64,000 bases of DNA. Origin: Kofleriaceae bacterium. Lineage in GTDB: Bacteria; Myxococcota_A; Polyangia; Haliangiales; Haliangiaceae. Below, in pieces: positions 20,582 through 64,000 of this stretch. Where the stretch lies: contig JANTGM010000010.1 of assembly GCA_024762925.1 (NCBI GenBank), positions 1 through 64,000 on the forward strand, read 5' to 3'. The number at the start of each line of letters is the position of its first letter. The stretch's first letter is position 1. A program made the position numbers and the translations under genes. The notes under the pieces are model-generated. The model worked only from the letters and a program-made list of their open reading frames with translations. It ran no database searches and was not told where the DNA came from.

Positions 20582-21151
20582 CTATTTTTTTGGGCCGATG
20601 CCCAGCTCATCTGCATGGGGCCTAAGGGCGTCGATAATCATCTGGATGTGGGGCTTGAGTTCGACGTTGAGGAGCTCGACACCAGCATGAACCTCTTCGC
20701 GCTCAACACTGGCAGCAAAGCGCTTGTCTTTGAGCTTCTTGACGACCGACTTTGGAGTGAGGGTCTCGACGCCTTCGGGGCGCACCAGGCAGCAAGCCAT
20801 AACAAAGCCCGTGAGTTCATCGCATGCGAGCAGAGCGCGGTCGAGACTCGAATCATATGGCACGCCCCACTTGGTGTAGTGCGCGGAAATCGCGTGCGCG
20901 ATGGATTCCTCGCCGCGATCGCGTAGCCATTCCACGATGCGCTGTGGGTGCTGATCGGGCCAGGCCTCGTAGTCGGCGTCGTGCAGCATTCCGGCAATGC
21001 CCCAATCCTCAAGCGCTTCCTGCTCGCCATGTTGTTCACAGGCCGCACGCATCACAATCTCCACTGCACGTGCATGCTTGCGCAGCGACTCTCCTTGTGT
21101 CCATTCGCAGAGGTGAAGCCAAGCGGTATTGCGGTCGAGTGTCTTTGCCAT
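20582..21151 (-). CDS. HD-domain phosphohydrolase
   Basis: H...HD signature (LRKHARAV...GMLHDADY) plus a downstream acidic D (ACDELTGF); 189 aa. Confidence 0.6.
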   Translation of the reverse strand: MAKTLDRNTAWLHLCEWTQGESLRKHARAVEIVMRAACEQHGEQEALEDWGIAGMLHDADYEAWPDQHPQRIVEWLRDRGEESIAHAISAHYTKWGVPYDSSLDRALLACDELTGFVMACCLVRPEGVETLTPKSVVKKLKDKRFAASVEREEVHAGVELLNVELKPHIQMIIDALRPHADELGIGPKK

Positions 21152-21315
21152 CGCGCTCGACTATACGACGCACGGCAAACCTATGCGAAAGGCTCTGCGA
21201 AGTTGATGCTCGGCTCGGAATCCTCAGAGGACAACATAGGCACATTCGGCCCTGCGGGGGACACACTCGCACCAACGCTGCAGTCGCAAGAGAATCTTCC
21301 AAGGGGCCAAGGGCA

Positions 21316-28660: not shown

Positions 28661-28891
28661 CTACAATGCGGCAGTTTCCAAGCCAGCTTGCGATATTGCC
28701 CTTGCCCCAATAGTTGGGTTTTTGTTCTTGGCGAGGGAGCGACGTTGCAGCTCTATGGACGCTCGCAACTCCATAGTCGTTGGCGTGGACAGGCTGCGCC
28801 ACCAGCAAAAGCAACAAGAGGCCCACGAGCAGAATCCGCATGAGGCCTAATACGAGCGGGGGCTTCATCCGTTGCCTCGTATCTCGGCTTT

Positions 28892-28934
28892 CGTGCTCCA
28901 GAGCGAAGCATGTGGAGTGCTCCAGAGCGAAGCA
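28892..28934. repeat. 18-bp direct repeat (gtgctccagagcgaagca x2, spacer tgtgga) about 95-135 bp upstream of the MVP start
   Basis: Read directly: cgtgctccagagcgaagca tgtgga gtgctccagagcgaagca. Confidence 0.6.
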
Positions 28935-29025
28935 GCCAGTCATGCGCGTCTCGAACTTCCGCGCACCTAGCCCCGGCATACGACTTGCTCTCATGCACCG
29001 CGAACCCCAGAAAGGACGATTGCTT

Positions 29026-31041
29026 ATGGCCGAACGCGACATTCGAGAACGAGATATTTTGGTAGCCCCAAACGAATATGCTTACGTGCAAGACTTAACC
29101 AAAGGCGACATCGTGCTCTACGTCGGTCCCACCAAGGTTAGTCTCAGCAATACCGAGCGCATGATTGAGCATCGCGATGGCCGTTTTGTGCCTGTGCGAG
29201 GCGATGAGGCCGGTATGAGCGTGCACCGTTTTGTCGGCGCGACTTCATCGCAATACATTATTCTTCAGAACCCTCCCAAAGATCCGGAAACGCAGGCTAC
29301 CAAGGGCGCCAACTCAGCAGTGCTACTAGAAGTTGGTCGCACGCTTGTTGTGCCCGGTCCGGCGGAGTTTCCTTTGTGGCCAGGGCAGACCGCTCGTGTC
29401 GTGGACGGTCATCGCCTGCGCGAGAATGAGTATCTCGTATTGCGGGTCTATGATGATGACGGCCAGGGGTCGCCCATTGGCACCGAAAGCATTCTGCGAG
29501 GAAGCGATCAGAGTTTTTATCTGCCAACAACGGGGCTCGAAGTGGTGCCCAATCGGGATGGTAACTATGTGCGCACGGCTTGGCGCTTGGACCACAGTCG
29601 AGGACTGCACTTGCGGGTGACAGCCAGCTTCGAGACGGGGGAGGAGGACCTCTTGCCACCAGGGCGCTACCAGGCTGGCCAGGATGTCTTCTTGCGGGGA
29701 GGTGCTGGTTTCTTCTTTCCAAACAGCAGTATCCACGTCGTCGCAGAGGTCGAAGCGATTCCTTTGGCGGAGAAAGAGGGGATTTATGTGCGAGACCTTG
29801 AGAGCGGCGGGGTACGCACCGTGGTTGGTCCGCAGAGCTATCTAGTCGATCCGACAAAAGAAGAACTCGTAGGAAGACCTCTAAGTGACGAGGTTCGAGC
29901 GTCCTGGAGGATTTCCAAGTACAGCGCAAAGCGCGCTCCTGCGATCTACGTGCCTCCCAGCGAGGCTGTCTTGATTATCGCGCCCAGTCGGCGAGAACTC
30001 GTGATGGGGCCGCAAGTTCGGGTGCTCGATTTTGATGAGGAGCTTGAGGTTTTGCAGCTGAGCACCGGACGGCCAAAGAGCAACGCCAACCTACTCGATA
30101 CCTGCTTCCTGCAAGTGCAAGGCAACAAGGTCTCGGATCGCGTGCAGTTGCAGACCGCCGATCACGTTGATCTCATGGCGACGCTCTCGTATCGCGTCTC
30201 GTTTGTCGGAGACAACGAGAAGTGGTTTGCTGTGCGCAACTACGTGGAGCTCTTGTGCGATCATCTTGGCTCGATCATTCGATCGGCAGCGCGCGCAACC
30301 ACGATTCACGACTTTCATGGATCATCGGCTCAGGTGCTGCGCGACGCTATCTTAGGATGCCACGAAGATTCCGGTGCCCGGACTGGTCGTCACTTCGAAG
30401 AGAATGGGATGTGGGTCTACGATCTTGAGGTTCTCGATGTGAGCATTCAGGACACCGACGTTCTGGAGATGTTGCAAAGTTCGCAGCGGGCCGCGATAGC
30501 CAGTGCGATTCATCGCAGTAGTGAAGATCGACGACTTGGAGACGAGCAGCTCAAGGAGTCTGTCAATTTGCGAATCATGAAGAGCCAAATTGCGACCCTT
30601 CAACAAGCCGCTGAACACGAGGCGACAAGTCGCGGTGTCGAGCTAGCGCGCACTGGCACACGGCTCGAAATCGATCGCATGGACAGAGTTGGACGGGCAA
30701 AGAACGCGGCTGACGCAGCATCCATCACCAACACAGCCCAACTTGCGTTGCAAAGCGCCAAGGCCGAACTTGAGGCCCAAGCCCTCGCAGCAAACGCAGA
30801 CGCCTTTTGCCAACAGATGCAGAGCCTCCAACCGGAACTCATCGCAACCTTGAAGAGCTTGGGCAACAAGCAACTCGCCGGCGAGCTCACAAAGAACTTG
30901 GCACCACTCGCTATCCTAGGTGGCGACTCAGTTGCCGATGTTGCCTCGCGGCTCCTTGAGAGTCTGCCAATGACCGGCAGCGCCGGCGGAATTCGCGATC
31001 TCCTTGTGGCTCCGGCGTGCGCTGCCACCGAAGAGGACTAG
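29026..31041 (+). CDS. Major vault protein (MVP) homolog
   Basis: RBS AAAGGA lies 9 nt before the ATG at 29026. [34 protein letters not shown] matches human MVP [49 protein letters not shown]...[19 protein letters not shown] matches VLSLSAGRPKRPHARR...IETADHARLQLQLAYNWHF. The N-terminus has MVP-repeat-like beta modules. An SPFH-like shoulder and a C-terminal coiled cap-helix region follow. Confidence 0.85.
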   Translation: [671 protein letters not shown]

Positions 31042-31059: not shown

Positions 31060-31335
31060 TTCGGTCGTCTGAGTCCCGATCTTCAGCGCCCTGCTCGTGC
31101 GCGATTCATGAAGATAGAACGCGCTCACTGGTCTTCTCGCCCGCTGACTTCGCGATCACGAATCAATGTTCATGGATCGCGCACTCGTGTCGGGGCCAGG
31201 AGCATAGAACCCTCTCGCTCGCTTTCTTGCCCTCTGAACGCGCTGGCATGGCCAGCGCTCTTCGTTGCTCCACGCCTTTCTTACCCCGGTAAGGTCGTCG
31301 TTCGCGCCTTGCCAGAGAACAAGCTTCGCGCGAGG
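31060..31335. repeat. Composite intergenic repeat: 90-bp MITE (31096-31185, TIR cgtgcgcgattcatgaa / ttcatggatcgcgcactcg) followed by a family-2 hairpin element (31195-31335)
   Basis: The terminal inverted repeats were read directly. The body matches 13130-13270. It contains the hairpin ccttacc-ccg-ggtaagg. Confidence 0.8.
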
Positions 31336-31515
31336 AGATCTATGCTCCTGAAGTGCACACGCAGGCCGCAAGAGGTTGTGCTCTTGGCATCATGCCCTCA
31401 GGAATGTTGCGTTTTTCGGGCTTGGACGGACTGCGAACTTCTCCAGAGCCTCCAAATTCGCTCAAGAAATCGGGCAACAGTGCCGAATTCCCATACGGAC
31501 GAGATTGTTGCGAGC

Positions 31516-33924
31516 ATGGGGAATCGAGGAAGATTGTCAAACCGCTTATCAAGTGTATTGCTGGCCTTAGTGCTTTGGTCTTGTGGAGACCGCGTACCTG
31601 GCCCGCCGATCGTTGAGTCGGTGATGCCCTCAAGCAAACCGGCAGGAGCCGCTCTCAACATTGCGATCAGGGGAAGCGCCTTCTACCAATTCACGAGCGC
31701 GAACCTCGACGATAAGAAGCCAGCCCGAGCAGATGATCGTTTCACGGCAACGCTTGTACGGAGCGGGTTGCTGCCCATCGAGCTTGAGGGTGTTGCGTGG
31801 ACCAATCTTACGAGCCTAAGCGCGGTGGTGCCGGGAGGACTTGAAGTTGGCAGCTACGACTTGGTGGTTACTGGACCTTTGGGGGCATCGAACACCCTGG
31901 TTGGAGCGTTTACTGTCTGTGCTGACGAGGATGGCGATGGCACATGTGGATGCATCGATCGCGACCGTGACGGTTTTGGCGCGGAAGGGGACCAGAGCAC
32001 ATGTGCCAACGTGGGCAACGACTGCAACGATGCCGTAGACTCGATCTTTCCAGGTGCCCCCGAGGTGGCCGACGACACTGTCGATCAAGACTGCAATGGA
32101 AATGACACCGTTAGCTGTTTTCTCGATGGCGATATGGATGGGTTCGGAACCGACTTGGGAACGATCAAGCTCGCTCCCGACGGTTCTTGCGAGACATCTC
32201 AACAGGAGTCAACTGTCGCAACGGATTGCGATGATTCGCAAGCAAGCACGTTTCCGGGGGCAGCTCCCAATGATGGCACTGAGTGCATGAAGGATGTTGA
32301 TGGCGACGACTTTGGCGACCAGAATCCACCTGCTCCGGTCACTCCTGGAAGCGATTGCGATGACATGTCCACAGGTTGTGTGAGTGACTGCATTGATGCG
32401 GATTTCGATGGCACGCCGGTTTGTGCAGGCGATTGTGATGACAGCATTGCCACTGGAGTTTCTTGCACCACAGGGTGCACGGTATTCCTTGCCGACGCCG
32501 ATGGCGATGGCTTTGGCGATGCGTCCAGTCCTGCTTCCGCAGCGAGCTGTGTGGCGCCGACTGGCTTTGTCGCCAATAGCACCGACTGCGATGACAATCC
32601 TCTCGCTTGCGGCAGTAGCTGCTTTCCTGGCAACCCGGCAGCCGATATTTGTGACGGCGACAACCAAGACTGCGATGCTTTGCTCGATGAGAATCCGGAC
32701 GTTGTTTGGTTCGCGGATGCCGATGGTGACAACTTCGGAAACCCCGCAAGCTCAACCAATGCTTGTACGCAGCCAGCGGGGTTTGTCGCAAACAATCTAG
32801 ACTGTGCAGACAATCCTGCTGGGGATGCAGTATGTGGGGGCCTCAATGGCAACTTCTGCAACCCTTTGGCTGGTGAGGGGCCTAGTGGCGACGCAACGTG
32901 TGGAGACAACGCTGACAACGACTGCGACACCGATACGGATGACGCTGACGCGGATTGCACGGCTACCACGACGACCATCACGTTGCGCTTTGACAACTCG
33001 GGCATCGGAGAGAATCTCATAGACTTCCCTGTACTCGTGACCTTGACGCCTGGCAACTTCGACTATGGCAGCGCCGAAGTCGACGGATCCGATTTGCTCT
33101 TCGAAGATGATGACGCTTCCACCGTGCTGCCTCACGAAATCGATGTATGGAATCCGGGTGGCACTTCGCAGATCTGGGTCTTAGTTCCGCAGATCGACGC
33201 CGGCTCATCAACCGATCACATCTTTCTTACGTATGGCGACGTTGGCATTGCACCAGGGGAAGACGCCGACACCTTGTGGAGCGCGTATCACGGTGTTTGG
33301 CATATGCAAGAGAATGGAGATGGCACGGCTGATGAGTTCAGAGACAGCTCGCCACAGAACAATCATGGTCAGGGTGGCGGTGGCGATGCATCTCGGGTTC
33401 CCAATCTCGTCGCGGGGCAAATCGGCAATGGGCAGACCTTCGATGGCGACAATGATCGCATCCTCATTAGCCCAAGCGACAGCTTCAACTTTTCCGAAGA
33501 CGCGGTATCCATGGAGTACTGGGCCTCTCCAAACCTCACGGGCGGCCCGATGGTGGCGATTGGCAAGGGAGGCTTTCCCACCGGCTACCGCAGCGGCATT
33601 GAGTTCGATGGGCGCGTTGGATGGCTGGTGGCTGGCACGTTGCTCGATACGGTCGTGGTGGCATCTGCCGAATTCCACCACATCGTCGTTACCTGGAATG
33701 GCAGCACGATGCGAACCTACGTCGATGGTGTCGAGCGAGCAAGCCAGAGTAAAGGCGGCAGTCTGGGAACGAATTCTAGTGACTTCTTTATTGGTCGCGG
33801 ACCGATCGGTTTTGAATTCCGAGGCATCATCGACGAGGCTCGCGTGATCAACGAGGGGCTTTCTGGGCCTTGGATTGAGGCGCAGTTTCGCACTACGAGT
33901 AACACCTACATCACCTTCGAGTAG
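31516..33924 (+). CDS. Large secreted lipoprotein: about 10 Cys-rich Asp-rich modules (putative metal-binding/MopE-like), then a DUF2341-like domain, then a LamG/concanavalin-A-like lectin domain
   Basis: ATG at 31516 gives a signal peptide LSSVLLALVLWSCGD. Repeated DCDDxxxxxxPGAxExxDGxDxDCDG modules are present (for example ATDCDDSQASTFPGAAPNDGTECMKDVDGDDFGD). The C-terminus has ITLRFDNSGIGENLIDFPVLV...DHIFLTYG and VAGQIGNGQTFDGDNDRILIS...HHIVVTWNGSTMRTYVDG, as in LamG (Laminin_G_3) domains. The ORF-track start at 31108 lies inside the repeat element. Confidence 0.65.
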   Translation: MGNRGRLSNRLSSVLLALVLWSCGDRVPGPPIVESVMPSSKPAGAALNIAIRGSAFYQFTSANLDDKKPARADDRFTATLVRSGLLPIELEGVAWTNLTSLSAVVPGGLEVGSYDLVVTGPLGASNTLVGAFTVCADEDGDGTCGCIDRDRDGFGAEGDQSTCANVGNDCNDAVDSIFPGAPEVADDTVDQDCNGNDTVSCFLDGDMDGFGTDLGTIKLAPDGSCETSQQESTVATDCDDSQASTFPGAAPNDGTECMKDVDGDDFGDQNPPAPVTPGSDCDDMSTGCVSDCIDADFDGTPVCAGDCDDSIATGVSCTTGCTVFLADADGDGFGDASSPASAASCVAPTGFVANSTDCDDNPLACGSSCFPGNPAADICDGDNQDCDALLDENPDVVWFADADGDNFGNPASSTNACTQPAGFVANNLDCADNPAGDAVCGGLNGNFCNPLAGEGPSGDATCGDNADNDCDTDTDDADADCTATTTTITLRFDNSGIGENLIDFPVLVTLTPGNFDYGSAEVDGSDLLFEDDDASTVLPHEIDVWNPGGTSQIWVLVPQIDAGSSTDHIFLTYGDVGIAPGEDADTLWSAYHGVWHMQENGDGTADEFRDSSPQNNHGQGGGGDASRVPNLVAGQIGNGQTFDGDNDRILISPSDSFNFSEDAVSMEYWASPNLTGGPMVAIGKGGFPTGYRSGIEFDGRVGWLVAGTLLDTVVVASAEFHHIVVTWNGSTMRTYVDGVERASQSKGGSLGTNSSDFFIGRGPIGFEFRGIIDEARVINEGLSGPWIEAQFRTTSNTYITFE

Positions 33925-34219: not shown

Positions 34220-35509
34220 TCAGACATCATCTGAGGCCTCAATGCCGTAGGGCACGCCGCTTGGGCAGCCGTGCATAGCAAGGAGCTTTCCGTTTTCGTC
34301 AATGGACAAGAACCGGTGTGCTTCCGTGATCTCTGGCCATTGAGTGCCTCTTGCCTGCTTGAGGCGAACTGCTGCGCTTACGGGGTGGGATCGAGCCCTA
34401 TTTCTCTTTGCGATTTCTTCTGAGGGACAGTGAAATGCAGCGATCGTCACCAGAGCACCATAGTCAACCGCCATGGCGATGACAGCGCTGCGGAAGTCAG
34501 TTCTAAGTGACGTGGCGTCCCAGACGACTTTTCGCTTTGCGCGCAGATGCTCCCGTAGTTCCTCCTTCGCCATGCGCAGGACCTTAGAGTTATTCTGTTG
34601 GTCTTCACGTCGAGACAAGGATGCCCGGATATCGTCAAGAGACACGACCTTGTGGTCGCCAAGGTTCTTGCCAATCCAGGTCGTTTTTCCGCTGCCGCTG
34701 AGCCCAGTGGTCACAACAACTTCAGGAAATTCGTCACGGTAGCCATACGACTTCGCAATCGCTTCTTCTGGAGTCGCGATGACGCCATCTTCGCGGTCCG
34801 ACGTTGCTTTGGCGACCACGAGATCGATTGTTGCTCCCGAGTGTCCCGCCAGGGCCTCTCTGATCTCATCGTTCCACAAGTCGCGCTCTTGGGTGTGCCA
34901 TACGTCGTACTCCTCTGCGAACATCCGAAACATCTCGAGATGCTCTAGCTGAGTTTCCTTGTCGCGACATTCACGTCCTCGGATGTCGGCAACTTCCAAC
35001 CAATAGATGAGTTCGAGGTCCACCACACGACTCAGCCTTCTGTAGGCGCCTGGCGACTGATTGCGCAAGACGAGTTTCTTTAGAGCGTTGTGATAGCCCG
35101 TGAGTGCCATGACTGAGTTGAGCAATGGAAAGCGCATGGTACCTGCGAGTTGAAGAGCCAAGTACGAGCGACCTTGCAGTTCATGACGAGGGCAGACAAG
35201 CCGGATGCGACCATCGATTTCACGCTCTTTTGTGGTGGTTGGTTTGGCGATGTCATGGAACGCCGAGCCCATGACAAGGGCCGCTCGCCTTGCAGGTGAG
35301 ATACCGTTGAGATCCGCGTCCAGTAGTTTGTAGGTCTCATCCAAGACCATCTGCGTGTGGATAAGGACGTTGCCCTCTGCATGCCATTCTGGGTCTTGCG
35401 GCGTGCCTTCTAGCTCATGGAGCAAGGGCAGCCGGTCGCCTAGATCATCGATAATGTCACTCATCGATGGCGAGCCACCGCTCGCGATGTGATCAATGAT
35501 ATCGCTCAT
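34220..35509 (-). CDS. Bifunctional RNA/DNA end-healing enzyme: N-terminal HD 2',3'-phosphoesterase domain fused to a C-terminal P-loop 5'-OH polynucleotide kinase domain (HD-Pnk architecture)
   Basis: The HD domain EWHAEGNVLIHT...GSAFHDIAKP resembles the HD domain of CCA-adding enzymes. The Walker A is VVVTTGLSGSGKTTWIGKNL, with Walker B VVWDATS and lid residues typical of T4 Pnk/zeta-toxin-like kinases. Start/stop overlap (ATGA) with the upstream RNA ligase gene. Confidence 0.65.
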   Translation of the reverse strand: MSDIIDHIASGGSPSMSDIIDDLGDRLPLLHELEGTPQDPEWHAEGNVLIHTQMVLDETYKLLDADLNGISPARRAALVMGSAFHDIAKPTTTKEREIDGRIRLVCPRHELQGRSYLALQLAGTMRFPLLNSVMALTGYHNALKKLVLRNQSPGAYRRLSRVVDLELIYWLEVADIRGRECRDKETQLEHLEMFRMFAEEYDVWHTQERDLWNDEIREALAGHSGATIDLVVAKATSDREDGVIATPEEAIAKSYGYRDEFPEVVVTTGLSGSGKTTWIGKNLGDHKVVSLDDIRASLSRREDQQNNSKVLRMAKEELREHLRAKRKVVWDATSLRTDFRSAVIAMAVDYGALVTIAAFHCPSEEIAKRNRARSHPVSAAVRLKQARGTQWPEITEAHRFLSIDENGKLLAMHGCPSGVPYGIEASDDV

Positions 35510-36147
35510 TGCTCTTCTCCTTCTTGGGAAGCCAGGCGGTTTGGAACAACGGGCTTGTGCATCCAGTGCTCTTCACTTTGAATATGGTTTGTGCGGACCC
35601 ACTTGGCAACTGAATCACCAAAGTCTGCATACGCAAAACGACTCGCCAGGCGCACTACGTAGCCTTCGGTGACAGAGGTGTCGGGCGCCAACTCTCGCAA
35701 AGCGTGTTCGTCGTAGATGCCGTCGAAGAGCACTGGCACGTGAGCGAGCCCCAAGAGCGCCGCCCACTCAACTGTCTCATCCCAGCTCAAGCAATGGTTT
35801 TGCTCGTTCCAAACCGAAAACATGAGAAAGAAACTTGGAAGCGCTGCATAGGCAATGGAATGGAGGGCGTAGAGGTTCTCCCCACAGACACGCCAGCCCT
35901 CGGGGATTTGGTGCGCCATGCGTCCGTGCATCGCCTTCACCCAGTCTCGTGAAGGGTGATGGCGACCATCGATTGAGCGAGCGTGAAGACCGTCTCGGTA
36001 GAGGCTAGTGTTTTCGCCGTCCATCTTCTCGGTCACGATGACGCGTTGGCCCCGGAAGGGCAGTAGAGAATCGGCAAAGAGGTCGTCTGAGGTAGATCCG
36101 GGGGACCACGGCAAGTGCCGTGTCCGCGGGTATTTTACGCGGTGCAT
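35506..36147 (-). CDS. ATP-dependent RNA ligase (PF09414-like nucleotidyltransferase)
   Basis: N-terminal KYPRTRHLPWSPG followed by motif I VTEKMDGEN (KxDGxN adenylylation lysine). Later motifs ENLYALH (III-like), EGYVVR (IV) and KWVR (V-like) are present. 213 aa. Confidence 0.65.
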   Translation of the reverse strand: MHRVKYPRTRHLPWSPGSTSDDLFADSLLPFRGQRVIVTEKMDGENTSLYRDGLHARSIDGRHHPSRDWVKAMHGRMAHQIPEGWRVCGENLYALHSIAYAALPSFFLMFSVWNEQNHCLSWDETVEWAALLGLAHVPVLFDGIYDEHALRELAPDTSVTEGYVVRLASRFAYADFGDSVAKWVRTNHIQSEEHWMHKPVVPNRLASQEGEEQ

Positions 36148-37556: not shown

Positions 37557-39401
37557 TCAGGTCTCGGTCGGCGAACTCTTCCAACGTCTCATCAAAGTGG
37601 CGTACTCTGGCAACCACGAAGCGTCCCAATTGCCAGAAGTAAACTTCGCATCATCGACTCTTGAGTTACAGGTCCAGGCGTATTCAATTCGGCTCATGAC
37701 ATCATGGGAATGAATCGACTCGTCATAGGCTTTCGCACCCAGATTCAGAAATCGCAGGTTTGGGAGTCTATTGACCAGATCCCAGATCCCCTCACGGTCA
37801 GCCTTCAGCACGTTCTTGAGGCCCAAGCCGACGAGCTGTGAAGCAACGGGCGATTGCAGCAGCACCTTCATCTCCTTGCCTTGGACACTTCCCAGGAACC
37901 GGAGACTGGGGAGTGAGTAGTCCGAAATTCTCTCAATCGACTTCGTGACATCGATGATCTCCAACGCGGACCAGCCCGGGTCACGTCGAGACTTGCCATC
38001 AAACGAGGCGATAGCACAAGCGTGCAGTATTCCTCTGTCGAAGTGCGCAGCCGGGCCATCAATGATGTGTGCACCTGTCCACCGAATGTGTTCACTGAGA
38101 ACTCCAGCGAACCTCTTGCGTTCTCTTGTCGTGAGCTTTGTGGGTTCTCCGGAGAGCTGAGCGCGTATGAACTCGCCGTGCGGGTCTCCTTGCTCCATGA
38201 GCGAGTCGGAGAGGACCCAGCGCGGATCGTCATCGTCTGGAGTTTCAAAGACGAGGGCAAAGAGAGCCTCCGTGCTTGCGTTCTTTTCTACCTCAATCCC
38301 TCTCACCGAAAGCAGCTGCGCGAGAACAGGACTGCTTTGAGCCACTTGGCTAAGCTTCTTCAAGTCATCGGATTCCCCGTGAATCAAGAGTGCGGCCAAA
38401 ACATGGAGTCCCTCTTCACCGTCCAGCCGAAACCTTGGGGCTTTGGCAAACTCCACAAGCTCCTTGCTTGGGTTCCAATTGGCGCTACCGATTCGCTGCG
38501 CAATGTGCGTGGCGATTGCGGCTTTCGTCTTGGGTAAGGCGGCATCGTCGAACGACGCCTTTCGATTCTTGGACAGGCGGTACCCAATCCACTGGAAGAC
38601 GCGCTCTCGGTTTTCAGAAACCCAGATGTCCATTTGGCTGGACAGCGGACCTATGTTGAGCCGGCTATCCGGACCCACTGGCCGTCGCAGTAGCTGCAGA
38701 TGTTGCTCGTTGGCACGCAACAGGACGTTGAAGAGCAGATGGAAATAGAACTCCTTTGCGCCGAAAGAGCGCCAAAGCCTATCCTCGATGAGCCAGCTAA
38801 CGAGGGTGTCAATTTCTGTGCCTACGGACTCGGACGTTATGCGAATCATGCCCTGAGTGGCTCGGCCCAAATCGCCTTCGATGATGGAGTCGAGCGGCGT
38901 AGGTGCAAGCGTTGGTTTCTTGGTCTCGGCGTTTTGGGCGGGCCTTGGGGGTGCGGATCTTGGCACGTCGCTTTCTGCGCTTTCGACCTCAGGAGGCGCT
39001 TGCGGGCATTCCTCGCCTCTCGTGGCTTTATCGAGGAGAAGCACATCTTCAGCGCAGAGAATCCGTGGCGTCTGCAACGACATGCCCAACCGTCCAGGCT
39101 TGGCGCTAATCCCCTTGCCCGTTGACAGTTTCAGGCTGCCAATCGCGCTTGTGATGTCGCAGAGGGCGGTAGAGTTCTTAGCCTCCCAACCGTCTTTCGT
39201 CTGAGTCGGGTTTTCCATTCGGGCGACGAGCCACAAGACATCATCCGGCCGGACTGTGACCAAGTAGAGGGTTCCGCCCTCAGCGAGCCCTTCTAGCCGT
39301 TTGTTGCTAGAGCGGTAAACCGAGGTTGCATACACGTCCCCTAGCACCAGTGATCCAGCCTTCGCGAAGACTGCTTTGCTAACGATGGCCAGCATGTCCA
39401 T
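37557..39401 (-). CDS. TIGR02996 repeat-companion domain / leucine-rich-repeat protein
   Basis: DDDDPRWVLSDSLMEQGDPHGEFIRAQLSGE matches the TIGR02996 core (DDPRLVYADWLEEQGDPRGEFIRLQ). LRR-like segments at the C-terminus include LRFLNLG and LPSLRFLG. The function of the N-terminal 300 aa is unknown. Confidence 0.55.
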   Translation of the reverse strand: MDMLAIVSKAVFAKAGSLVLGDVYATSVYRSSNKRLEGLAEGGTLYLVTVRPDDVLWLVARMENPTQTKDGWEAKNSTALCDITSAIGSLKLSTGKGISAKPGRLGMSLQTPRILCAEDVLLLDKATRGEECPQAPPEVESAESDVPRSAPPRPAQNAETKKPTLAPTPLDSIIEGDLGRATQGMIRITSESVGTEIDTLVSWLIEDRLWRSFGAKEFYFHLLFNVLLRANEQHLQLLRRPVGPDSRLNIGPLSSQMDIWVSENRERVFQWIGYRLSKNRKASFDDAALPKTKAAIATHIAQRIGSANWNPSKELVEFAKAPRFRLDGEEGLHVLAALLIHGESDDLKKLSQVAQSSPVLAQLLSVRGIEVEKNASTEALFALVFETPDDDDPRWVLSDSLMEQGDPHGEFIRAQLSGEPTKLTTRERKRFAGVLSEHIRWTGAHIIDGPAAHFDRGILHACAIASFDGKSRRDPGWSALEIIDVTKSIERISDYSLPSLRFLGSVQGKEMKVLLQSPVASQLVGLGLKNVLKADREGIWDLVNRLPNLRFLNLGAKAYDESIHSHDVMSRIEYAWTCNSRVDDAKFTSGNWDASWLPEYATLMRRWKSSPTET

Positions 39402-56399: not shown

Positions 56400-56786
56400 T
56401 TAGCCTCGGCGAACGGCAACGCGGCCGCTTCTTAGTGCGAACGCGAGGGCCATTAACAGTAACCCAAATCCCAAACCGCTACCTCCACCCGTACTGCAAC
56501 CTTTAGAAGACTTCTTCTTGCCGCTATCATCGGCGGCGGCGTTGGGGGCTTCAGGGTTTTTCTTATAGTAGCAGCTCCTGCAACTCGTGCGCGATTCATG
56601 AATATAGAACGCGTGCAGGCGTGTGAGGACCATGCCGCCCGTGCCGCTCAAGACGTCTCCGCCGAGAGTAGCTAGGTCCTGGTAGTCCAACGTCGGTCCG
56701 GGGCTGAGAGTGTGCCCAAGGATAGCTTCCGTTACCCAGCCAGGATAGAAATCGGCGCCCCAACTCGCGAAATTGTCATAGGGCAT
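56400..56786 (-). pseudogene. Remnant of a MYXO-CTERM-anchored protein gene disrupted by a repeat-element fragment (56570-56625)
   Basis: The C-terminus GCSTGGGSGLGFGLLLMALAFALRSGRVAVRRG fits the MYXO-CTERM sorting signal (Cys, Gly-rich stretch, hydrophobic helix, basic tail). There is no signal peptide. The middle (HAFYIHESRTS) is encoded by the MITE left-end sequence cgtgcgcgattcatgaatatagaacgcg. Confidence 0.5.
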
Positions 56787-56839: not shown

Positions 56840-58339
56840 CTAGCAGACCGACAGGGTGCGGTCTTTGTGCACGAGCGGCGCTGTGACTGTGAATTTGGAA
56901 CCGCCGTCCTCCGTTGCCTCGTAGCGAATCGTTCCACCGTGTTCGTGGGCAATCTCAGAAGAAATCGCAAGGCCCAGCCCCGATGCGGTGTGGTCGTTCT
57001 TTGTCGACATGAAAGGCTCGAAGATTTCGTTGACCAGGTCTTCGGCAACACCAGTGCCATGGTCGAGGACGGAGAAGGTAACGCGGTCACGATCCACTGT
57101 AGCTCGAACCGATACCACAGCACCAAGTGGCGAGGCCTCGGCGGCGTTCTTGAGAAGATTTACGAGAACCTGCAGAAAGAGGGCCTCGTTGACATCGACC
57201 TCCGCATCGGGCATTTCCCCAATGTCGAGCGAGATAACCGAACGAAGATTGCCTCGGCACAGTGCTACCGCGCGATCGACCAAGTGTCCCACACCGCATG
57301 GACGATGAACTGCATCGCCAGATCTCACAAACGTGCGCATTGCGCGAAACAGCGCGACCATGCGCGATGAGACTTCTACGGCATTCTCGAGGGTGTCAAC
57401 CACCTCCGGATCTTCTTCTTTGCTCGCAGTATCTCTTACGAAGTCTTCTAGTTCGAAGAGTGCGCCTTGAAGACCTTGTACCATGGAAGCGAGCTCGTGC
57501 ACGAGGGCAACGGTCATGGTTCCAAGTGTGGCGCGCCTGGTGACAGCGCTGAGTTTCTCGCGTGCCTGCGGACTATCGCTTGCCGACTTGGCCAACCGGG
57601 TTGCTGCATCTTCGGAGCTCCAATGTAGTGCCCGGGTAGCAAGATAGTCGACGATATCGCGGGCGACACTTCCCATGCCTCGGGCAAGAAGCCGAATTGT
57701 TCCATCATAGCTAATCGGCAGGTCGACGTTCCAGCGACCAGGCTCGGTGGAGGCTGAGGGTAGAGTGCCCGCAAGAACACGGTCCTCTTGCTCCTCTTGC
57801 ATTTGCACAGCGCACCGCTCAACACCCTCAAGCGAGAGCGCGCGACGCACGAGCACTTTTGCTAGCGCCGTGGGGCTTTCGATTGCTGCAAACTCGCTGT
57901 CCACACCAGCGAGTGCCAGAGCGTCTGTCACCGAGCCGCTAAGCGAGCGTTCCCGGTTCCTGTGCTCAAAGGCGCGCTTGAGCGTAACCTCCACTTCGTC
58001 GTGCCAGGGCTTTCCCACCTTGTAGGGCGCGTTCTCTTGCATGGTGGCTTTGTGCGCATCGTCATCGACGAAGCCAGTAAGAAGAATTCGTACGAGCTCT
58101 GAGTCGCGCCTCGATGCTTCCTCCAGCACTTGCACACCGCTCATGCCAGGCATTCGCTGATCGGAGATGATGGCGTCATAGCGCTCGGAATCCAAATGCC
58201 CTAGCGCTTCGACGCCCGTTGCCACCGCTGTGACATCGTAGTCGAGTTCAAGTTCATCGAGAAGTGCATCGCGAACGTCGTCGTCGTCGTCGACAATAAG
58301 GATGCGGTAGCGAGAGTCGGTTACTACTTGTTCACTCAT
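56840..58339 (-). CDS. Hybrid response-regulator/histidine kinase (REC-HisKA-HATPase)
   Basis: The RBS AGGAACCAAAAG precedes the ATG at 58339. The receiver is ILIVDDDDDVRDAL...ISDQRMPGMSG. The H-box is VALVHELASMVQGL. The ATPase motifs are LLKNAAEAS, DHGTGV and GLGLAI. Confidence 0.8.
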   Translation of the reverse strand: MSEQVVTDSRYRILIVDDDDDVRDALLDELELDYDVTAVATGVEALGHLDSERYDAIISDQRMPGMSGVQVLEEASRRDSELVRILLTGFVDDDAHKATMQENAPYKVGKPWHDEVEVTLKRAFEHRNRERSLSGSVTDALALAGVDSEFAAIESPTALAKVLVRRALSLEGVERCAVQMQEEQEDRVLAGTLPSASTEPGRWNVDLPISYDGTIRLLARGMGSVARDIVDYLATRALHWSSEDAATRLAKSASDSPQAREKLSAVTRRATLGTMTVALVHELASMVQGLQGALFELEDFVRDTASKEEDPEVVDTLENAVEVSSRMVALFRAMRTFVRSGDAVHRPCGVGHLVDRAVALCRGNLRSVISLDIGEMPDAEVDVNEALFLQVLVNLLKNAAEASPLGAVVSVRATVDRDRVTFSVLDHGTGVAEDLVNEIFEPFMSTKNDHTASGLGLAISSEIAHEHGGTIRYEATEDGGSKFTVTAPLVHKDRTLSVC

Positions 58340-59792
58340 CTTTTGGTTCCTCGGTGGTTGTGCCCAGTTGTGCCGGCAGTTGGGCCTGCTCATCGTGAGC
58401 TGGCATGAGAATTCGAAATCGTGTGCCTGGATTCAGGTCGCTGTGCACAATGTCGCCTCGCCATTGCCTGGCTAGGCGAAAGGACATGCTGAGCCCGAGT
58501 CCCGTGCCGTCTTCTCGACCCGATACAAAGGGTTCGAAGAGGTTTTCGCGAACGCGCTGTGGCAGTCCCGGCCCATCGTCCTCAACATCGAGCACCACCC
58601 ATTTGTCATCGCGATGCAGTCGCAACCTCAATGTGCCGTTTCCGTCGAGCGCGCGAAGGGCATTGTCGATGAGGTTTGAAATCACGTGATGCAGTGCATC
58701 GGGCGGAATCCACGCCAGCGGACTCTCTTGCAGATCGCAGACGAGCGTGGTCTCGTCCATCCGCTGCTCGAACAGCGTTAGAGCTGTGCGAAGTTCGTCG
58801 GCGATGTTCACGGCCTGTGCTGAGCTTGGGAGACTGCCGCTCTTATGAGCGCGTCGCACCGCATCGACAATCGTCTCCATGCGCCCAAGAGCTCCGGTGG
58901 ATCGCTCTAGAAATCGCGCTAGCTCCTCTTGCAGTGCCTCATCCGCGTTGCGTTCAACGCGTCGTGAGATTTGCCGGAGGGCGCTAGAGAGCGCTGCCAT
59001 GGGGTTGTTCATGCTGTGTGCGATGCCCGCACTAAACTCACCGATGGCAGCCCGCTGTGCGGCTTGCGCAAACTGTGAGCCCAACGCCGCAAGTTCGCGG
59101 TTGCGATCCTCAAGGGAACTCTGGGCTTCTGTAAGCTGCTCCACTGTACGCCCGAGCTCGGCATGGGCTGCGTAGAGGGCGGTGTGCTTGGCAATGAGGT
59201 CACGCTCCAGGTTGCGGCGCTCGGTCGTGTCTCGGGCGATGCAGGCCACGAGAGGTTCCTTGCCATTGTAGATGTGGGCAACTGTGAGAGAGACGAATAC
59301 GGGAAAGCCATCAAGTCGTCGCAGACGCACATCTTCATGAAGCCCAGCACGCGCTGTGATCCGGTCGTCCCATTGCCCAGATCGTTCATCCTCATCAAAG
59401 AGCAGCCCTGCAGGACTTCCAACGATGCTATGAATTGAGCGCCCCACCAGCTCTTCTAGGTGGCGATTGGCCGAGAGAATGACCCGGGTTTCTTGGTGCA
59501 TCGTGAACACAGCTTCAGCGCCATACTCAAAGAAGATGCCGAAGACCTGGTCTTCTACGGTCATGGACTCCATCACTAGCTGGGTCGTCCATCTTCCTTG
59601 AACCTGAAGGCCCACTCGATCCCTTGTGGGTGTCTGAAGACCCTGGGTGCATGGGTCAGTGACCCGGGTCTCGCTAGACCCATGCTTGCCATCAAATTCC
59701 CTCCCATCCCAAAACTCGATCCTCGGGGATCGAAATGAATCGATCTCAGATACGTTTTTGATCTCAAGCTCTTCCGCGATTGGCCGAAGCAT
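58332..59792 (-). CDS. PAS-domain sensor histidine kinase
   Basis: PAS-like N-terminus. H-box GIAHSMNNPMAALSSAL. The ATPase motifs are ISNLIDNALRA, DDGPGL and GTGLGLSMS. The stop overlaps the downstream hybrid kinase by 8 nt. The start may be internal (about 59573). Confidence 0.8.
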   Translation of the reverse strand: MLRPIAEELEIKNVSEIDSFRSPRIEFWDGREFDGKHGSSETRVTDPCTQGLQTPTRDRVGLQVQGRWTTQLVMESMTVEDQVFGIFFEYGAEAVFTMHQETRVILSANRHLEELVGRSIHSIVGSPAGLLFDEDERSGQWDDRITARAGLHEDVRLRRLDGFPVFVSLTVAHIYNGKEPLVACIARDTTERRNLERDLIAKHTALYAAHAELGRTVEQLTEAQSSLEDRNRELAALGSQFAQAAQRAAIGEFSAGIAHSMNNPMAALSSALRQISRRVERNADEALQEELARFLERSTGALGRMETIVDAVRRAHKSGSLPSSAQAVNIADELRTALTLFEQRMDETTLVCDLQESPLAWIPPDALHHVISNLIDNALRALDGNGTLRLRLHRDDKWVVLDVEDDGPGLPQRVRENLFEPFVSGREDGTGLGLSMSFRLARQWRGDIVHSDLNPGTRFRILMPAHDEQAQLPAQLGTTTEEPKDE

Positions 59793-59873: not shown

Positions 59874-61250
59874 GTGCTCGAAAATTCCACTCAGGCTCCA
59901 CTTTCTGTTCTTCTCGTCGATGACGAGGCTCCGCTTCGAAGGGCGCTTGAGAGATTCCTCAAACGGGAGGGGCACAAGGTCCGCTCAGCTGGGTCGGTGA
60001 AAGAAGGGCGGAACGTGCTTGAGAAGCACTCTGTTGATATCGCCTTTGTCGACTTTCGGCTCCCAGATGGAACGGGCGCCGAGCTCATTAAGTGGGCTGT
60101 CGACAAGCATCGTGTGGGGGCTGCCTACTGCATGACCGGATTTGCAAATTGTGGAACCGTTGTCGAAGTCATGCAAGCTGGGTCGATTGACGTGCTTGAA
60201 AAGCCGTTCGAGGTACAACACCTCGCGGATCTCTTGGCCAAGCTACGGGTCAATCAAGGTGTGGACGCCGAGGAACTCACCCGTTGGCGCCAGCGCTGTG
60301 CCTCAGACATTCTCGGAGAAGACCCTGCGTTGCTTGATGCGCTCAAGGTACTTCGAAGTGTTTCCGATACCGATTGCACCGTGCTCATCACTGGTGAGAG
60401 CGGTACTGGCAAAGAGCTTGCGGCTCGTGCAGTGCACCAAGGATCGCAACGCGCTCCCAAGCCATTCATCGCCCTCAACTGCGCCGCTATTCCCGAGTCG
60501 ATGATCGAGGCAGAACTTTTCGGTCACGCAAAGGGGGCATTCACCGGAGCCTCTACAACACGGAGTGGTCGAATCGCCGCCGCTGACGGTGGAACGCTGT
60601 TTCTCGACGAGATTGGCGATATGCCGCTCGCTGCTCAGGCGAAACTTCTTCGTGTTCTACAAGACCGCACGATCACACCAGTTGGTGCGGATCTGCCGAT
60701 TGCAGTGGACGTTCGCATTGTCGCTGCTACCAATCGCGATTTAGAGGCAATGGTGGCCGAGGGAACGTTTCGCGCGGACCTGTACTTTCGTCTCACGGTA
60801 ATACCTGTGCATCTGCCTCCTCTGCGCGAGCGTGGTGATGACATCGTGGCGCTAGCGAAGACCTTCATTGACGGTGCCAATACCCGCAATCGCAGACAGG
60901 TGACTGGAATCGATGGCTCGGCGGAGAAAGTTCTTCGATCGCATTCGTGGCAGGGAAACGTGCGCGAGCTCTACCACCTCATCGAGCGGTCGGTGCTTCT
61001 CAAAGGGCAGGGTAGCTTGCGAGCACAAGACCTCGGTTTACGCCCTACAGCTCGGGGACGTCGCTCGACAGCTGGGCAGTCGCTCAATCTAGAGACAAGC
61101 CTTGACTTGCGAAAAGCGATCGACTCGGTGGAGCGACAGCTCATCGACGAAGCGCTTGAGCGAACCGGTGGCAACCGCACCGAAGCGGCCGCTCTACTTG
61201 GACTCAACCGCACAACGCTGGTTGAAAAGATCCGCAAGCACGGAAACTAG
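59874..61250 (+). CDS. Sigma-54-dependent response regulator (NtrC/FleR/FlrC family: REC-AAA+-Fis HTH)
   Basis: The receiver is [14 protein letters not shown]...[11 protein letters not shown]. The Walker A is GESGTGKE, with GAFTGA (GAFTGAS) and ESELFGH-like EAELFGH. The C-terminal HTH is [20 protein letters not shown]. Confidence 0.85.
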
Positions 61251-61254
61251 TGTG

Positions 61255-61450
61255 GGATCCAGAGGCATAGAACGCCCTGGCTCGGTTCTTCGCCCTTTGA
61301 ACGCCTTCGGCTCTTGTGTCGGATTCAAGAATCTTGCTCGCGTTCGCCCGGTTCTTCGCGCTCTGGACGCCTTCGGCTCTGCGTTGCTCAGCGCCTCCCT
61401 TGCCCCAGCAAGCTCGTTGTTCGCGCCTTGCCAGTGAACGAACTCCCGTC
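61255..61450. repeat. Interspersed intergenic repeat element (two tandem family-3 units)
   Basis: ggctcggttcttcgccctttgaacgccttcggctc appears twice (61283, 61343), followed by ttgctcagcgcctcccttgccccagcaagctcgttgttcgcgcc. The hairpin is cttgc-ccca-gcaag. Confidence 0.8.
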
Positions 61451-61729
61451 GCGATCGTCGATCCACCATTCTGGACCCGACACTAGAGCCACTCAATCTT
61501 CGCCATGCGCGTGAAGGTGCTTCCAATGCACGGGCGCGCATTTTTCTGTTTCGGATTGGTGGGAGTTCGCAGGCGCCAATCGATTGTGTGGATCGTCAAA
61601 TTCCGCCGTCAATCCCACCGACAGTTGCCCTGTCATAGGTCCTAAGAAAATGTCTAACTGTCCAATTCTACAGGTGGATCTCGGTCGCCACGCAGTGTGG
61701 ATCGACTATTGCTTTGGAGTAGCTGCGCG

Positions 61730-62122
61730 ATGAGAGTGTACGAAGCCGTAGATCAGATGCAGCGAGCATTGACCTTCCATCGCAATCGCCATTCGACGAT
61801 TGCGGGAAACGTCGCGAACCTCGATACACCGGGCTACAAGCCCCTCGATCTAGAGCGTCTACCAGCCAATGCTGCGCTCAATGCGGGCCGCATGGCAAAG
61901 ACCGATGACCGGCACATCTCGGGGGGAGATGGCGCTGGTGGTGCCCATGCAAGGACCATCGTGGATGCAAACGCGATGCAGAGTGCTGATGGCAATGCGG
62001 TCAATATCGAGCGCGAGATGGCCAAGATCGATGCAAACCGCGTGCGGTATTCCACTACGTCGGATTTGGTTTCAAGGCGTCTGGCGATGCTTCGGTACGC
62101 CGCCTCTGATGGAGCGGCATAG
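61730..62122 (+). CDS. flgB: Flagellar basal-body rod protein FlgB
   Basis: MRVYEAV...LTFHRNRHSTIAGNVANLDTPGYKPLD and the C-terminal NAVNIEREMAKIDANRVRYS match the FlgB signature. Confidence 0.8.
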   Translation: MRVYEAVDQMQRALTFHRNRHSTIAGNVANLDTPGYKPLDLERLPANAALNAGRMAKTDDRHISGGDGAGGAHARTIVDANAMQSADGNAVNIEREMAKIDANRVRYSTTSDLVSRRLAMLRYAASDGAA

Positions 62123-62164
62123 GGGCCCTGGGGGGGCTTGGGTTTCTAGCAACAGGAGAATCAG

Positions 62165-62599
62165 ATGGACTTTTTTACCGCGATGGAGGTTTCTGCCTCG
62201 GGACTTGCAACTCAGCGCACACGCATGAACGTTGCCTCGTCAAACTTGGCCAACGTCAACACGACGTCGCCAGATGGCGAGGGCTACAGGCGTCTCGATG
62301 TTGTTGTTCGCTCACAGCGCCTCAGTGGAAGTATTGCTGGGCACAAGGCCGGCAGTTTCAACAACACAGTGCGTAGCGCTGGTGTTGCGGAAATTGTTGA
62401 GGACCAAGAGCCGCTGCAGATGGACTACGACCCAGGGCACCCAGACGCCAACGAAGAAGGTTACGTGGCGTATCCGAACGTCAATGCTATCGAGGAGATG
62501 GTGGACATGATTACCGCTTCGAGGGCCTATGAAGCCGGCATCACAGCTCTTGGTACCGCTGTCAATATGGCAGAGCGCGCCTTGGGAATTGGTAGGTAA
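62165..62599 (+). CDS. flgC: Flagellar basal-body rod protein FlgC
   Basis: MDFFTAMEVSASGLATQRTRMNVASSNLANVNTT and the C-terminal VAYPNVNAIEEMVDMITASRAYEAGITAL match FlgC. Confidence 0.85.
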   Translation: MDFFTAMEVSASGLATQRTRMNVASSNLANVNTTSPDGEGYRRLDVVVRSQRLSGSIAGHKAGSFNNTVRSAGVAEIVEDQEPLQMDYDPGHPDANEEGYVAYPNVNAIEEMVDMITASRAYEAGITALGTAVNMAERALGIGR

Positions 62600-62602
62600 G
62601 CC

Positions 62603-62947
62603 GTGGCGAATTCAATCGCAAATCTGGCGAGTATGCAGCGCAGTGAGTTTCCCATTGCTCGCAACGAAGCCGCACGGCGCACAGCAAAGAGTGGCCGCAC
62701 TGATGGCGCTGAGAGTTCTTCTGGACTGGACTTTGCGGACGCAATCACTGGCGCCATGCAGCGAGCTGCCAACGATGAAAAGCAGGCAACCGAGATGTCA
62801 CTTCAATTTGCCGAAGGCGATCCGAACGTCGGAATTCACGAAGTCGTTATCGCCTCCGAACGGGCCAACGTTTCTCTGCGCTACGCCGTAACTCTCAAGA
62901 ACAAGATTGTTGAGGCGTACAGAGACATCATGAGTACCCAGGTCTAA
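62603..62947 (+). CDS. fliE: Flagellar hook-basal body complex protein FliE
   Basis: About 114 aa. The C-terminus HEVVIASERANVSLRYAVTLKNKIVEAYRDIM matches the FliE conserved helix. Confidence 0.75.
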   Translation: MANSIANLASMQRSEFPIARNEAARRTAKSGRTDGAESSSGLDFADAITGAMQRAANDEKQATEMSLQFAEGDPNVGIHEVVIASERANVSLRYAVTLKNKIVEAYRDIMSTQV

Positions 62948-62963
62948 GACAGCCTGAAACTTC

Positions 62964-64000
62964 ATGGCCGAAACAGAAACACCTACGCCGAGCGACGCAC
63001 CAGCGTCAGTCTTCGGCCAGCTACGAGGGCTTTGGGATACGTTATCTCCACGCCGTCGAGCTGTTGTAGTCGCGGCCGTTGTTGGTACCGCGGTTCTCGT
63101 CGGGGCAATGTCCCTCGGCGGATCTGTAGAGTCCTATGCACCGCTCTACAATGGTGTGGCCGCCGAAGACGCGGGTGAGATTGTCTCAACGCTCAAGGAG
63201 CGCGGCATCTCCTATCGCCTATCCAACGGTGGGACCACGATCTCGGTCCCCAAAGCGAAGCTTCACGAAGTCCGCATCGAGTTGGCGTCTAGTGGGCTAA
63301 ATCAGGGCGGTGGCGTCGGCTACGAAATCTTCGACAAACAAACGTTTGGAACCACGAGTTTCGTCGAGCAAATGAATCATAAGCGTGCTCTGCAGGGAGA
63401 ACTCACGCGCAGCATCTTGGCGATTTCCTCGGTCAAGAGTGCTCGTGTGCTTCTTGCCATGGGCAAACGCTCTGTCTTTCGCGATGCCACCCAGCCAACA
63501 ACAGCTTCTGTTGTTCTTCACCTCAAGCCTGGTCGCAAACTCCGCGCTTCCGAAGTGCGAGGCATCGTTAACCTCGTTGCCAACAGTGTGAACGGCTTGG
63601 AGCCAGAGAAGGTTGCCATTATTGATGAGCGCGGTCGGGTTCTCTCGTCACCGGGCGGAGAGGATTCCAATAGCTCTGCCGCCGATACGCAGAGCAAGCT
63701 CGAAGCTGGGCTTGAAGAGCGTGTACGCCGAATGGTTGAGACTGTTGTTGGGATAGGAAACGCTGCGGTTGTCGTGACGGCTGAGATGGACTTTAGCCGG
63801 GTCGACCAAACAGAGGAGATGTTCGACAAAGACAAGATCGCGGTTCGCTCGGAAACAACGAACGTCTCTCGCGATTCCGGTGCTGGTGGTACTGTTGGTG
63901 GAATCGCTGGAGCTCGTGCAAACCTCGATGGAAACGGAGCGACTGGCGGTGAAGTGGGGGGCGAAGCCGGCCAAACGACGTCGTCTGAGATACGAAACTA
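62964..64000 (+). CDS. fliF: Flagellar M-ring protein FliF (N-terminal about 345 aa; runs off the window end)
   Basis: Translated by hand from the ATG at 62964: MAETETPTPSDAPASVFGQLRGLWDTLSPRRRAVVVAAVVGTAVLVGAMSL (TM1), then APLYNGVAAEDAGEIVSTLKERGISYRL and VVTAEMDFSRVDQTEEMFDKD (YscJ/FliF ring-building motifs). The ORF is absent from the track because no stop lies within the window. Confidence 0.8.
   Translation, partial: MAETETPTPSDAPASVFGQLRGLWDTLSPRRRAVVVAAVVGTAVLVGAMSLGGSVESYAPLYNGVAAEDAGEIVSTLKERGISYRLSNGGTTISVPKAKLHEVRIELASSGLNQGGGVGYEIFDKQTFGTTSFVEQMNHKRALQGELTRSILAISSVKSARVLLAMGKRSVFRDATQPTTASVVLHLKPGRKLRASEVRGIVNLVANSVNGLEPEKVAIIDERGRVLSSPGGEDSNSSAADTQSKLEAGLEERVRRMVETVVGIGNAAVVVTAEMDFSRVDQTEEMFDKDKIAVRSETTNVSRDSGAGGTVGGIAGARANLDGNGATGGEVGGEAGQTTSSEIRN

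Follow-up and report, generated by a model that had tools for sequence, protein, structure and literature searches.

The start of a divergent, probably functional and apparently sigma-54-controlled flagellar gene cluster in an uncultured member of Myxococcota

The DNA analyzed here (the window) comprises the first 64,000 nucleotides of contig JANTGM010000010.1, from a genome labelled Kofleriaceae bacterium. Its final stretch (61730-64000) holds the basal-body genes flgB, flgC, fliE and the 5' part of fliF. Classic myxobacteria glide and lack flagella, and a preliminary description of the sequence had accordingly offered three options for this locus, namely an unusual flagellated lineage of Myxococcota, a relic, or a basal body repurposed for a secretion-like role. 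Which of these applies was the question addressed. The stretch is very likely the promoter-proximal end of a functional cluster of ~40 kb for a complete flagellum, probably polar and equipped with L and P rings, in an uncultured, probably marine member of Myxococcota (Polyangia; metagenome-assembled genomes (MAGs) labelled Kofleriaceae). The cluster is an ordinary one, divergent in sequence and apparently controlled by sigma-54, and flagellated Myxococcota are already known.

Gene identity was tested by profile searches against the curated NCBIfam equivalog cut-offs, supplemented with Pfam-type domain hits. All four flagellar genes, which lie on the plus strand, exceeded their cut-offs: flgB (61730-62122; proximal rod protein; TIGR01396, 71.4 bits against a cut-off of 59), flgC (62165-62599; proximal rod protein; TIGR01395, 150.3 bits against 102), fliE (62603-62947; MS-ring/rod adaptor; TIGR00205, 71.1 bits against 30) and fliF (62964-64000; MS-ring protein; TIGR00206, 243.3 bits against 130). 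The first three are complete, and of the 592 codons of fliF the window includes the first 345; the canonical flgBC-fliEF cluster noted earlier is therefore present. Because the FliF fragment passed the MS-ring model and failed that of the injectisome protein SctJ (65.9 bits, cut-off 162), the operon was classified as flagellar rather than as part of an injectisome. All reading frames are intact, and hidden Markov model (HMM) matches span the full length of flgB, flgC and fliE and the whole window part of fliF. In the rest of the 64-kb window, no further flagellar gene was found in the open reading frame (ORF) listing or by the profile searches, and an Rfam scan of the window returned no match.

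The cluster continues beyond the window. A Logan contig (L001) that is 100% identical to positions 61457-64000 carries the remainder of fliF (completing a protein of 592 aa) and then fliG, whose product has the FliG_N, FliG_M and FliG_C domains. Two contigs whose FliG is 95-96% identical, JGI Ga0316204_10000006 (1.16 Mb) and TARA_SAMEA4397295 scaffold_3 (0.96 Mb), were followed by homologue searches and exact-protein look-ups, and the gene order was read without interruption. In these relatives the cluster has about 40 genes, in the order flgB, flgC, fliE, fliF, fliG, fliH, fliI, fliJ, a fliK-like gene, flgD, flgE, fliM, fliN, a fliO-like gene, fliP, fliQ, fliR, flhB, flhA, flhF, flhG, fliA, flgF, flgG, flgA, flgH, flgI, flgJ, flgM, a 141-aa ORF, flgK, flgL, two flagellin genes, fliD, fliS, a 112-aa ORF and, on the opposite strand, fliL. 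Encoded by this set are the whole basal body (L and P rings included), the hook, the filament and its cap, chaperones, proteins for polar placement and a sigma-28/anti-sigma pair, and the gene order is identical across lineages. Of the downstream genes for which a check had been proposed, fliG was located on the window-identical contig, and fliH/I/J, flhA/B and the flagellins in close relatives; judging from the latter, the window organism would also carry the genes beyond fliG. An end of the cluster after fliN, as suggested by the ORF lists of the related loci L003 and L004, was rejected, the loci L086 and L089 continuing with fliO, fliP, fliQ and fliR.

Selection was assessed from the ratio of nonsynonymous to synonymous substitution rates (dN/dS), calculated by the Nei-Gojobori method for the window organism and two MAG relatives, with dS ranging from 0.65 to saturation. 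The ratios were 0.014-0.07 for the two kinases and the activator upstream (described below), flgB (0.026-0.035), flgC (0.016-0.036), fliE (0.045-0.062), fliF and fliG. Such values denote strong purifying selection, and the relic option was ruled out on that ground. Decay of an ancestral flagellum had been made conceivable by the gliding isolates from which the nearest named family, Kofleriaceae, is known, by a highly divergent FliM and by a hardly recognizable FliK. Against these stand the intact frames and the extent of the HMM matches, the low dN/dS at nearly saturated synonymous sites, and the identical gene order across lineages, which leave the idea of a relic barely credible. Degenerate basal-body genes, which in combination with missing flagellar genes had been named beforehand in the preliminary description as speaking against a flagellated lineage, were not encountered; the genes passed their cut-offs and had low dN/dS.

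The remaining option was a basal body converted to a non-motile or secretion machine, comparable to the "needleless" type III system of myxobacteria. Such a conversion would agree with the habits of the cultured relatives, which glide and have no flagella, with the reduced type III system retained by the Cystobacterineae among cultured myxobacteria (PMC3459982), and with a gene reading here that did not include motAB. The Myxo and needleless type III secretion systems share with the present cluster their phylum and homologous export-gate, ATPase and inner-ring (FliF/SctJ-family) parts (PMC3459982, PMC12075869). The Myxo non-flagellar system, however, lacks FlgB, FlgC, FlgD, FlgE, FlgK, FliE, FliG, FlgH and MotAB (PMC3459982), whereas FlgB, FlgC, FliE and FliG are present here and FlgD, FlgE, FlgK and FlgH occur in the relatives. 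The latter also encode the hook, L and P rings, hook-filament junction proteins, two flagellins, the cap, FliS, FliL and FlhF/FlhG. In addition to the failure of FliF on the SctJ model, the torque helix of FliG retains five of five charges (R281, R298, E305, D306 and R314), which correspond to K264, R281, D288, D289 and R297 of Salmonella, residues that contact the stator in Salmonella/E. coli. Because the relatives have hook, L/P rings, flagellins and cap, and because the torque charges are kept, a secretion-only role is unlikely, and repurposing of any kind was given very little weight. Cells of this lineage presumably do swim.

Whether the flagellar genes belong to a genome of Myxococcota at all was considered separately. 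The window contains no rRNA or ribosomal-protein genes, and the phylum call rests on lineage markers and nearest genomes. An ECF (extracytoplasmic function) sigma factor gene at 16790-17701 matched TIGR03001 ("Myxococcales family 1") with 193 bits against a cut-off of 155; a TIGR02996-domain protein is encoded at 37557-39401, and a Ser/Thr kinase with TPR repeats at 13527-16130. These three hallmarks, all noted in the preliminary description, were borne out by profile hits. The nearest FliF sequences in species-representative genomes came from two MAGs, one labelled "Kofleriaceae bacterium" (89% identity; contig of 557 kb) and one labelled "Myxococcales bacterium" (80%); the scan returned three loci, the third being an alphaproteobacterial MAG at 36% identity. 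A scan of JGI metagenomes gave no relatives above 70% FlgC identity. The organism labels found on the 120 best homologues of FliG, of FliP and of FlgH were limited to Kofleriaceae, Haliangiales, Nannocystaceae, Polyangia, Myxococcota, Myxococcales or "Deltaproteobacteria"; Kofleriaceae are placed in Myxococcota, Polyangia, Haliangiales. By the TIGR03001 sigma factor, the nearest genomes and the labels of the homologues, the genome belongs to Myxococcota, and a taxonomy outside that phylum was not upheld.

The genes could still be foreign, through recent horizontal transfer or as a chimera of assembly or binning, and the patchy occurrence of flagella within the phylum and the alphaproteobacterial third match to FliF would fit such an origin. 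GC content is uniform across the window (55-61%), with no break in GC or skew at the cluster. The junction of an ArAE-family exporter with the kinases is kept in L004, and the kinase junction also in L003 and L086. The contigs of the relatives measure 0.56-1.16 Mb, and all organism-labelled close homologues come from Myxococcota. A foreign origin is thus highly improbable, and the option of a flagellated lineage of Myxococcota stood, on the taxonomy, the relatives' full gene set and the intact basal-body genes. Another supposed hallmark, a "MYXO-CTERM remnant", was not confirmed, the candidate at 56400-56786 matching no NCBIfam model. This 128-aa ORF (minus strand) ends in ...GCSTGGGSGLGFGLLLMALAFALRSGRVAVRRG (Cys/Gly-rich, hydrophobic, Arg-rich tail) and resembles MYXO-CTERM by eye. 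Its equivalent in L003 and L086 is a full DUF2330 protein of 512-533 aa, that of L003 ending in a similar Arg-rich tail; the ORF in the window may be a truncated remnant.

A sigma-54 -24/-12 element, TGGATCGACTATTGCT, is located at 61698-61713 (plus strand), its TGG lying 32 nt before the flgB ATG; an RpoN promoter at this place had been proposed for inspection, and the element is both present and conserved in position. It is kept in L003, L004 and L086 with one or two spacer changes amid a diverged surrounding region. In L006 and L088 an equivalent of the form TGG-N8-TTGC precedes the flgB start by 28 nt, L007/L008 having CGG in place of TGG, and the position upstream of flgB is conserved in at least five lineages. 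A second element, TGGCTTGnnGGTTGCAATC, occurs 30 nt before fliM at four loci (L003, L004, L086 and L089). Because remote metagenomic relatives of FlgC carry canonical TGGTATGGAAATTGCT-type elements 46-132 nt upstream, sigma-54 control of flgB appears to be common in neighbouring sequence space. The flgB site was not picked up in a scan for the consensus TGGCAC-N5-TTGC with at most one mismatch.

The distances from the promoters depend on the start codons. The flgB start was fixed by an in-frame TGA at -15 in L004, and that of fliM by an in-frame TGA at -6 in the same locus. An upstream flgB start (GTG at 61697 or TTG at 61709), with which the promoter motif would be coding, was rejected on the TGA in L004 and on the lack of an upstream start codon in L008. 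A downstream start (Met10 or the conserved "AMTFHR") was also rejected, because codons 1-10 differ between the window and L004 at three nucleotides, all of them synonymous, and because the TIGR01396 alignment runs from residue 5. With these starts, the -12 GC dinucleotide lies 14-19 nt ahead of the flgB and fliM start codons. Since transcription from sigma-54 promoters starts ~12 nt downstream of the -12 GC, the leader would be only ~1-7 nt long and the transcripts nearly leaderless. A GGAG at 61716-61719, which is not conserved in L004, would then fall upstream of the transcript and outside the mRNA. We know of no description of such an arrangement, with sigma-54 promoters 28-32 nt before the start codon and (nearly) leaderless transcripts.

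Most of the spacer between the activator gene and flgB is poorly alignable (mean column identity of 59% across the complete alignment), and its only conserved stretches are the promoter and a set of blocks at 61586-61670 (plus strand), GATCGTCAAATTCCGCCGTCAATCC..CGACAGTTG ... TGTCTAACTGTCCAATTCT. One 10-mer, GTGTGGATCG, is found both at 61586 and, within the promoter, at 61695. These blocks are a candidate binding region for the activator or for integration host factor (IHF). Elsewhere in the spacer (61273-61426) there are direct repeats with a period of ~66 nt (two 42-nt copies at 83% identity and an 11-nt core found three times), which are not conserved in L003 or L004; the spacer of L086 has, in their stead, an additional gene on the minus strand, which encodes a Cys-rich repeat lipoprotein.

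Upstream of this spacer lies the gene of an NtrC-family sigma-54 enhancer-binding response regulator (59874-61250, plus strand), with REC, Sigma54_activat (1.5e-70) and HTH_8 domains. The GAFTGA loop, Walker A and receiver Asp are visible in the translation, and the family assignment made in the preliminary description was upheld by the domain hits and the GAFTGA. The protein is 94% identical to its L003 orthologue (dN/dS 0.023), and its gene directly precedes flgB in L003, L004 and L088, with one extra gene between them in L086. Divergent from it are two kinase genes, the pair described earlier, which the domain hits corroborate. The first encodes a cytoplasmic PAS-HisKA-HATPase sensor kinase (58332-59792, minus strand; PAS_9, HisKA and HATPase_c; dN/dS 0.070), a neighbour of the REC-kinase and flgB in L003, L004, L086, L088 and L007; its true start may lie ~130-220 nt inside the ORF, the orthologues having 410-442 aa. 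The second encodes a hybrid REC-histidine kinase (56840-58339, minus strand, in an ORF open to 58393; Response_reg 4.4e-18, HATPase_c 1.8e-22; dN/dS 0.032), in which an H-box, "LVHELAS", can be read. Because its orthologues in L003, L004, L086, L088 and L007 have 499-500 aa, its start is probably the ATG at 58339 (MSEQVV...), which gives an 8-nt overlap with the stop of the upstream kinase.

Several observations weigh against a functional, sigma-54-controlled cluster as proposed here. The genes past fliG were read from relatives that are ~82% identical in DNA, the window stopping inside fliF. Neither motA nor motB was among the genes read in the relatives from flgB through fliL (TARA scaffold). 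FliM is very divergent (L003 18685-19716; TIGR01397, 51 bits against a cut-off of 220), and FliG (201 against 227; L003, TIGR00207) and FliN (80 against 84) fall slightly below their equivalog cut-offs. The -24/-12 motif occurs in the window at chance frequency (8 matches against 5.4 expected), so that a match in a single sequence is weak and the evidence lies in the conservation of position. Finally, the activator scored under every curated equivalog cut-off (AtoC, 412 against 714; FlbD, 314.7 against 750; FlgR, 313 against 750). For lack of a flagellar-specific match its target was assigned from gene context only. By sequence it is a generic member of the NtrC family, FlrC/FleR/FlgR/FgrM-like by context and assignable to none of these; of the earlier label "FleR/FlrC-like", the REC-AAA+(GAFTGA)-HTH_8 architecture stood, and the flagellar cut-offs (FlbD, FlgR) were not reached.

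These scores, highest on the AtoC and NtrC models, bear on the possibility that the adjacent regulators control something else, that their adjacency has been kept for other reasons, and that another sigma-54 activator (a master regulator of the FleQ/FlrA/FgrM type) drives the flgB and fliM promoters. Myxococcota genomes contain many such activators (PMC12316311), and L007 lacks an activator gene between the kinases and flgB. The order kinase-kinase-activator-flgB, however, is kept from 96% down to 62% FliG identity (L088), the kinase pair still stands beside flgB at 63% FlgC identity (L007), and all three regulators are under strong purifying selection. Control by another activator was consequently considered unlikely, though it deserves more weight than the alternatives discussed above. 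On the conserved gene order, the adjacent activator and kinases would serve the flgB and fliM promoters.

A mechanism can be proposed on this basis. The REC-kinase hybrid would modulate the PAS kinase with which it is co-transcribed, and the latter would phosphorylate the receiver domain of the adjacent NtrC-type activator. The activator would bind the conserved blocks of the spacer and, in an ATP-driven step, open the sigma-54 RNA polymerase complex at the -24/-12 element before flgB; it would act likewise at the second element, directly before fliM. The two promoters would drive the genes of the rod, MS ring, C ring, export apparatus and hook, after which the FliA/FlgM pair encoded in the cluster would release the late genes (flagellins and cap).

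The proposed circuit resembles FlrB/FlrC of Vibrio, FleS/FleR of Pseudomonas and FlgS/FlgR of Campylobacter in its cytoplasmic PAS-type kinase, its REC-AAA+-HTH activator and its -24/-12 promoter before rod/hook genes. In the former deltaproteobacterium Geobacter, the RpoN-dependent activator FgrM is needed for flagellum synthesis, as cited in PMC8844916. In contrast to FlrBC, FleSR, FlgSR and FgrM, there are two kinases here, one of them a REC-kinase hybrid, and both are divergent from the activator. In the window clade, one promoter precedes both the early genes (fliF-fliJ) and rod/hook genes (flgB, flgC, flgD and flgE), rather than separate class II and III operons; a second precedes fliM, and the distance of the promoters to the start codon is 28-32 nt. 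In scoring under both equivalog cut-offs, the activator is also unlike FlgR and FlbD.

Flagella have been reported elsewhere in the phylum. Anaeromyxobacter dehalogenans has a 55.7-kb flagellar cluster, swimming was observed in strain K (PMC2330069, 2008), and the same paper argues for inheritance of the cluster and against its acquisition (PMC2330069). It is alike in being a single large contiguous cluster in a member of Myxococcota, and it includes motAB and fliC (PMC2330069). That organism, however, belongs to the class Myxococcia and comes from soil/sediment, whereas the window lineage is labelled Polyangia and comes from marine samples. Compared by description, the Anaeromyxobacter cluster was reported without fliJ, fliK, flgA and flgJ, whereas FliJ, FlgA, FlgJ and a FliK-like protein are all encoded in relatives of the window. 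In Persicimonas caeni YN101 (Bradymonadia), electron microscopy revealed flagella, and the flagellar gene set is complete (PMC7188933, 2020); this cultured member of Myxococcota shows that gliding and swimming are compatible within the phylum (PMC7188933). It differs in its class. Flagellar assembly is also encoded by Myxococcota MAGs from Zodletone (bioRxiv 10.1101/2021.07.06.451402), and FliG, FliP and FlgH are already annotated by NCBI in Kofleriaceae, Haliangiales and Nannocystaceae MAGs. A literature search on flagella specifically in Kofleriaceae or Polyangia yielded no relevant paper. The word "unusual" in the preliminary description was thus an overstatement, flagella or clusters having been reported for Anaeromyxobacter, P. 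caeni and the Zodletone MAGs and being annotated in many others.

With this cluster, a marine lineage of Polyangia (labelled Kofleriaceae) joins the short list of Myxococcota with a complete flagellar system under selection, and this lends support to an ancestral flagellum in the phylum, with loss in the classic clades that glide and fruit. Knowledge of flagella as such is unchanged, the gene annotations already being public in MAGs; worthy of note are the breadth of flagellar genes in uncultured Polyangia and a compact regulatory module of two kinases, one sigma-54 activator and two promoters unusually near the start codons. A wider generalization is advanced tentatively, at somewhat less than even confidence: a wide radiation of largely uncultured Polyangia (MAGs labelled Kofleriaceae, Haliangiales and Nannocystaceae, open-ocean members included) may consist of polar-flagellated swimmers with a vertically inherited flagellum, whose early operons are read from sigma-54 promoters 28-32 nt before the start as (nearly) leaderless transcripts. 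The statement that myxobacteria lack flagella would then be valid only for the cultured soil clades.

Some details of the relatives' clusters were recorded in passing. Pfam matched only the FliN-like C-terminus of the L003 FliM, and the N-terminus of that protein keeps a LDPNELEAIQDAV peptide similar to the CheY-P binding motif. The ORF at the fliO position has 429-433 aa (L089 8703-10004; L086 18179-19468), far longer than the 121 aa of E. coli FliO; it gave a faint FliO Pfam match in L086 and no match in L089. A canonical sigma-28 promoter (TAAA-N15-GCCGATAA) was looked for in front of the flagellin genes and not found; their upstream regions have only a GGGCGAACC box in common (L090 15663-15776 and 16616-16811). 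This box may be a lineage-specific FliA -10 element.

Several other genes of the window were identified. A bacterial homologue of the Major Vault Protein (753 aa; MVP_shoulder 4.9e-26, Vault_3 and Vault_4) is encoded at 28780-31041 (plus strand) and is followed at 31108-33924 by the gene of a 938-aa protein with Laminin_G_3 and a MopE-type motif. At 34220-36147 (minus strand), an RNA ligase gene (PF09414, 1.9e-33) adjoins that of an AAA_33 kinase-domain protein, and the two may form an RNA repair pair. A CotH-family kinase (1e-50) is encoded at 10978-12555 (minus strand), and a PolX-like protein with DNA polymerase beta thumb and HhH domains at 20824-23058 (plus strand).

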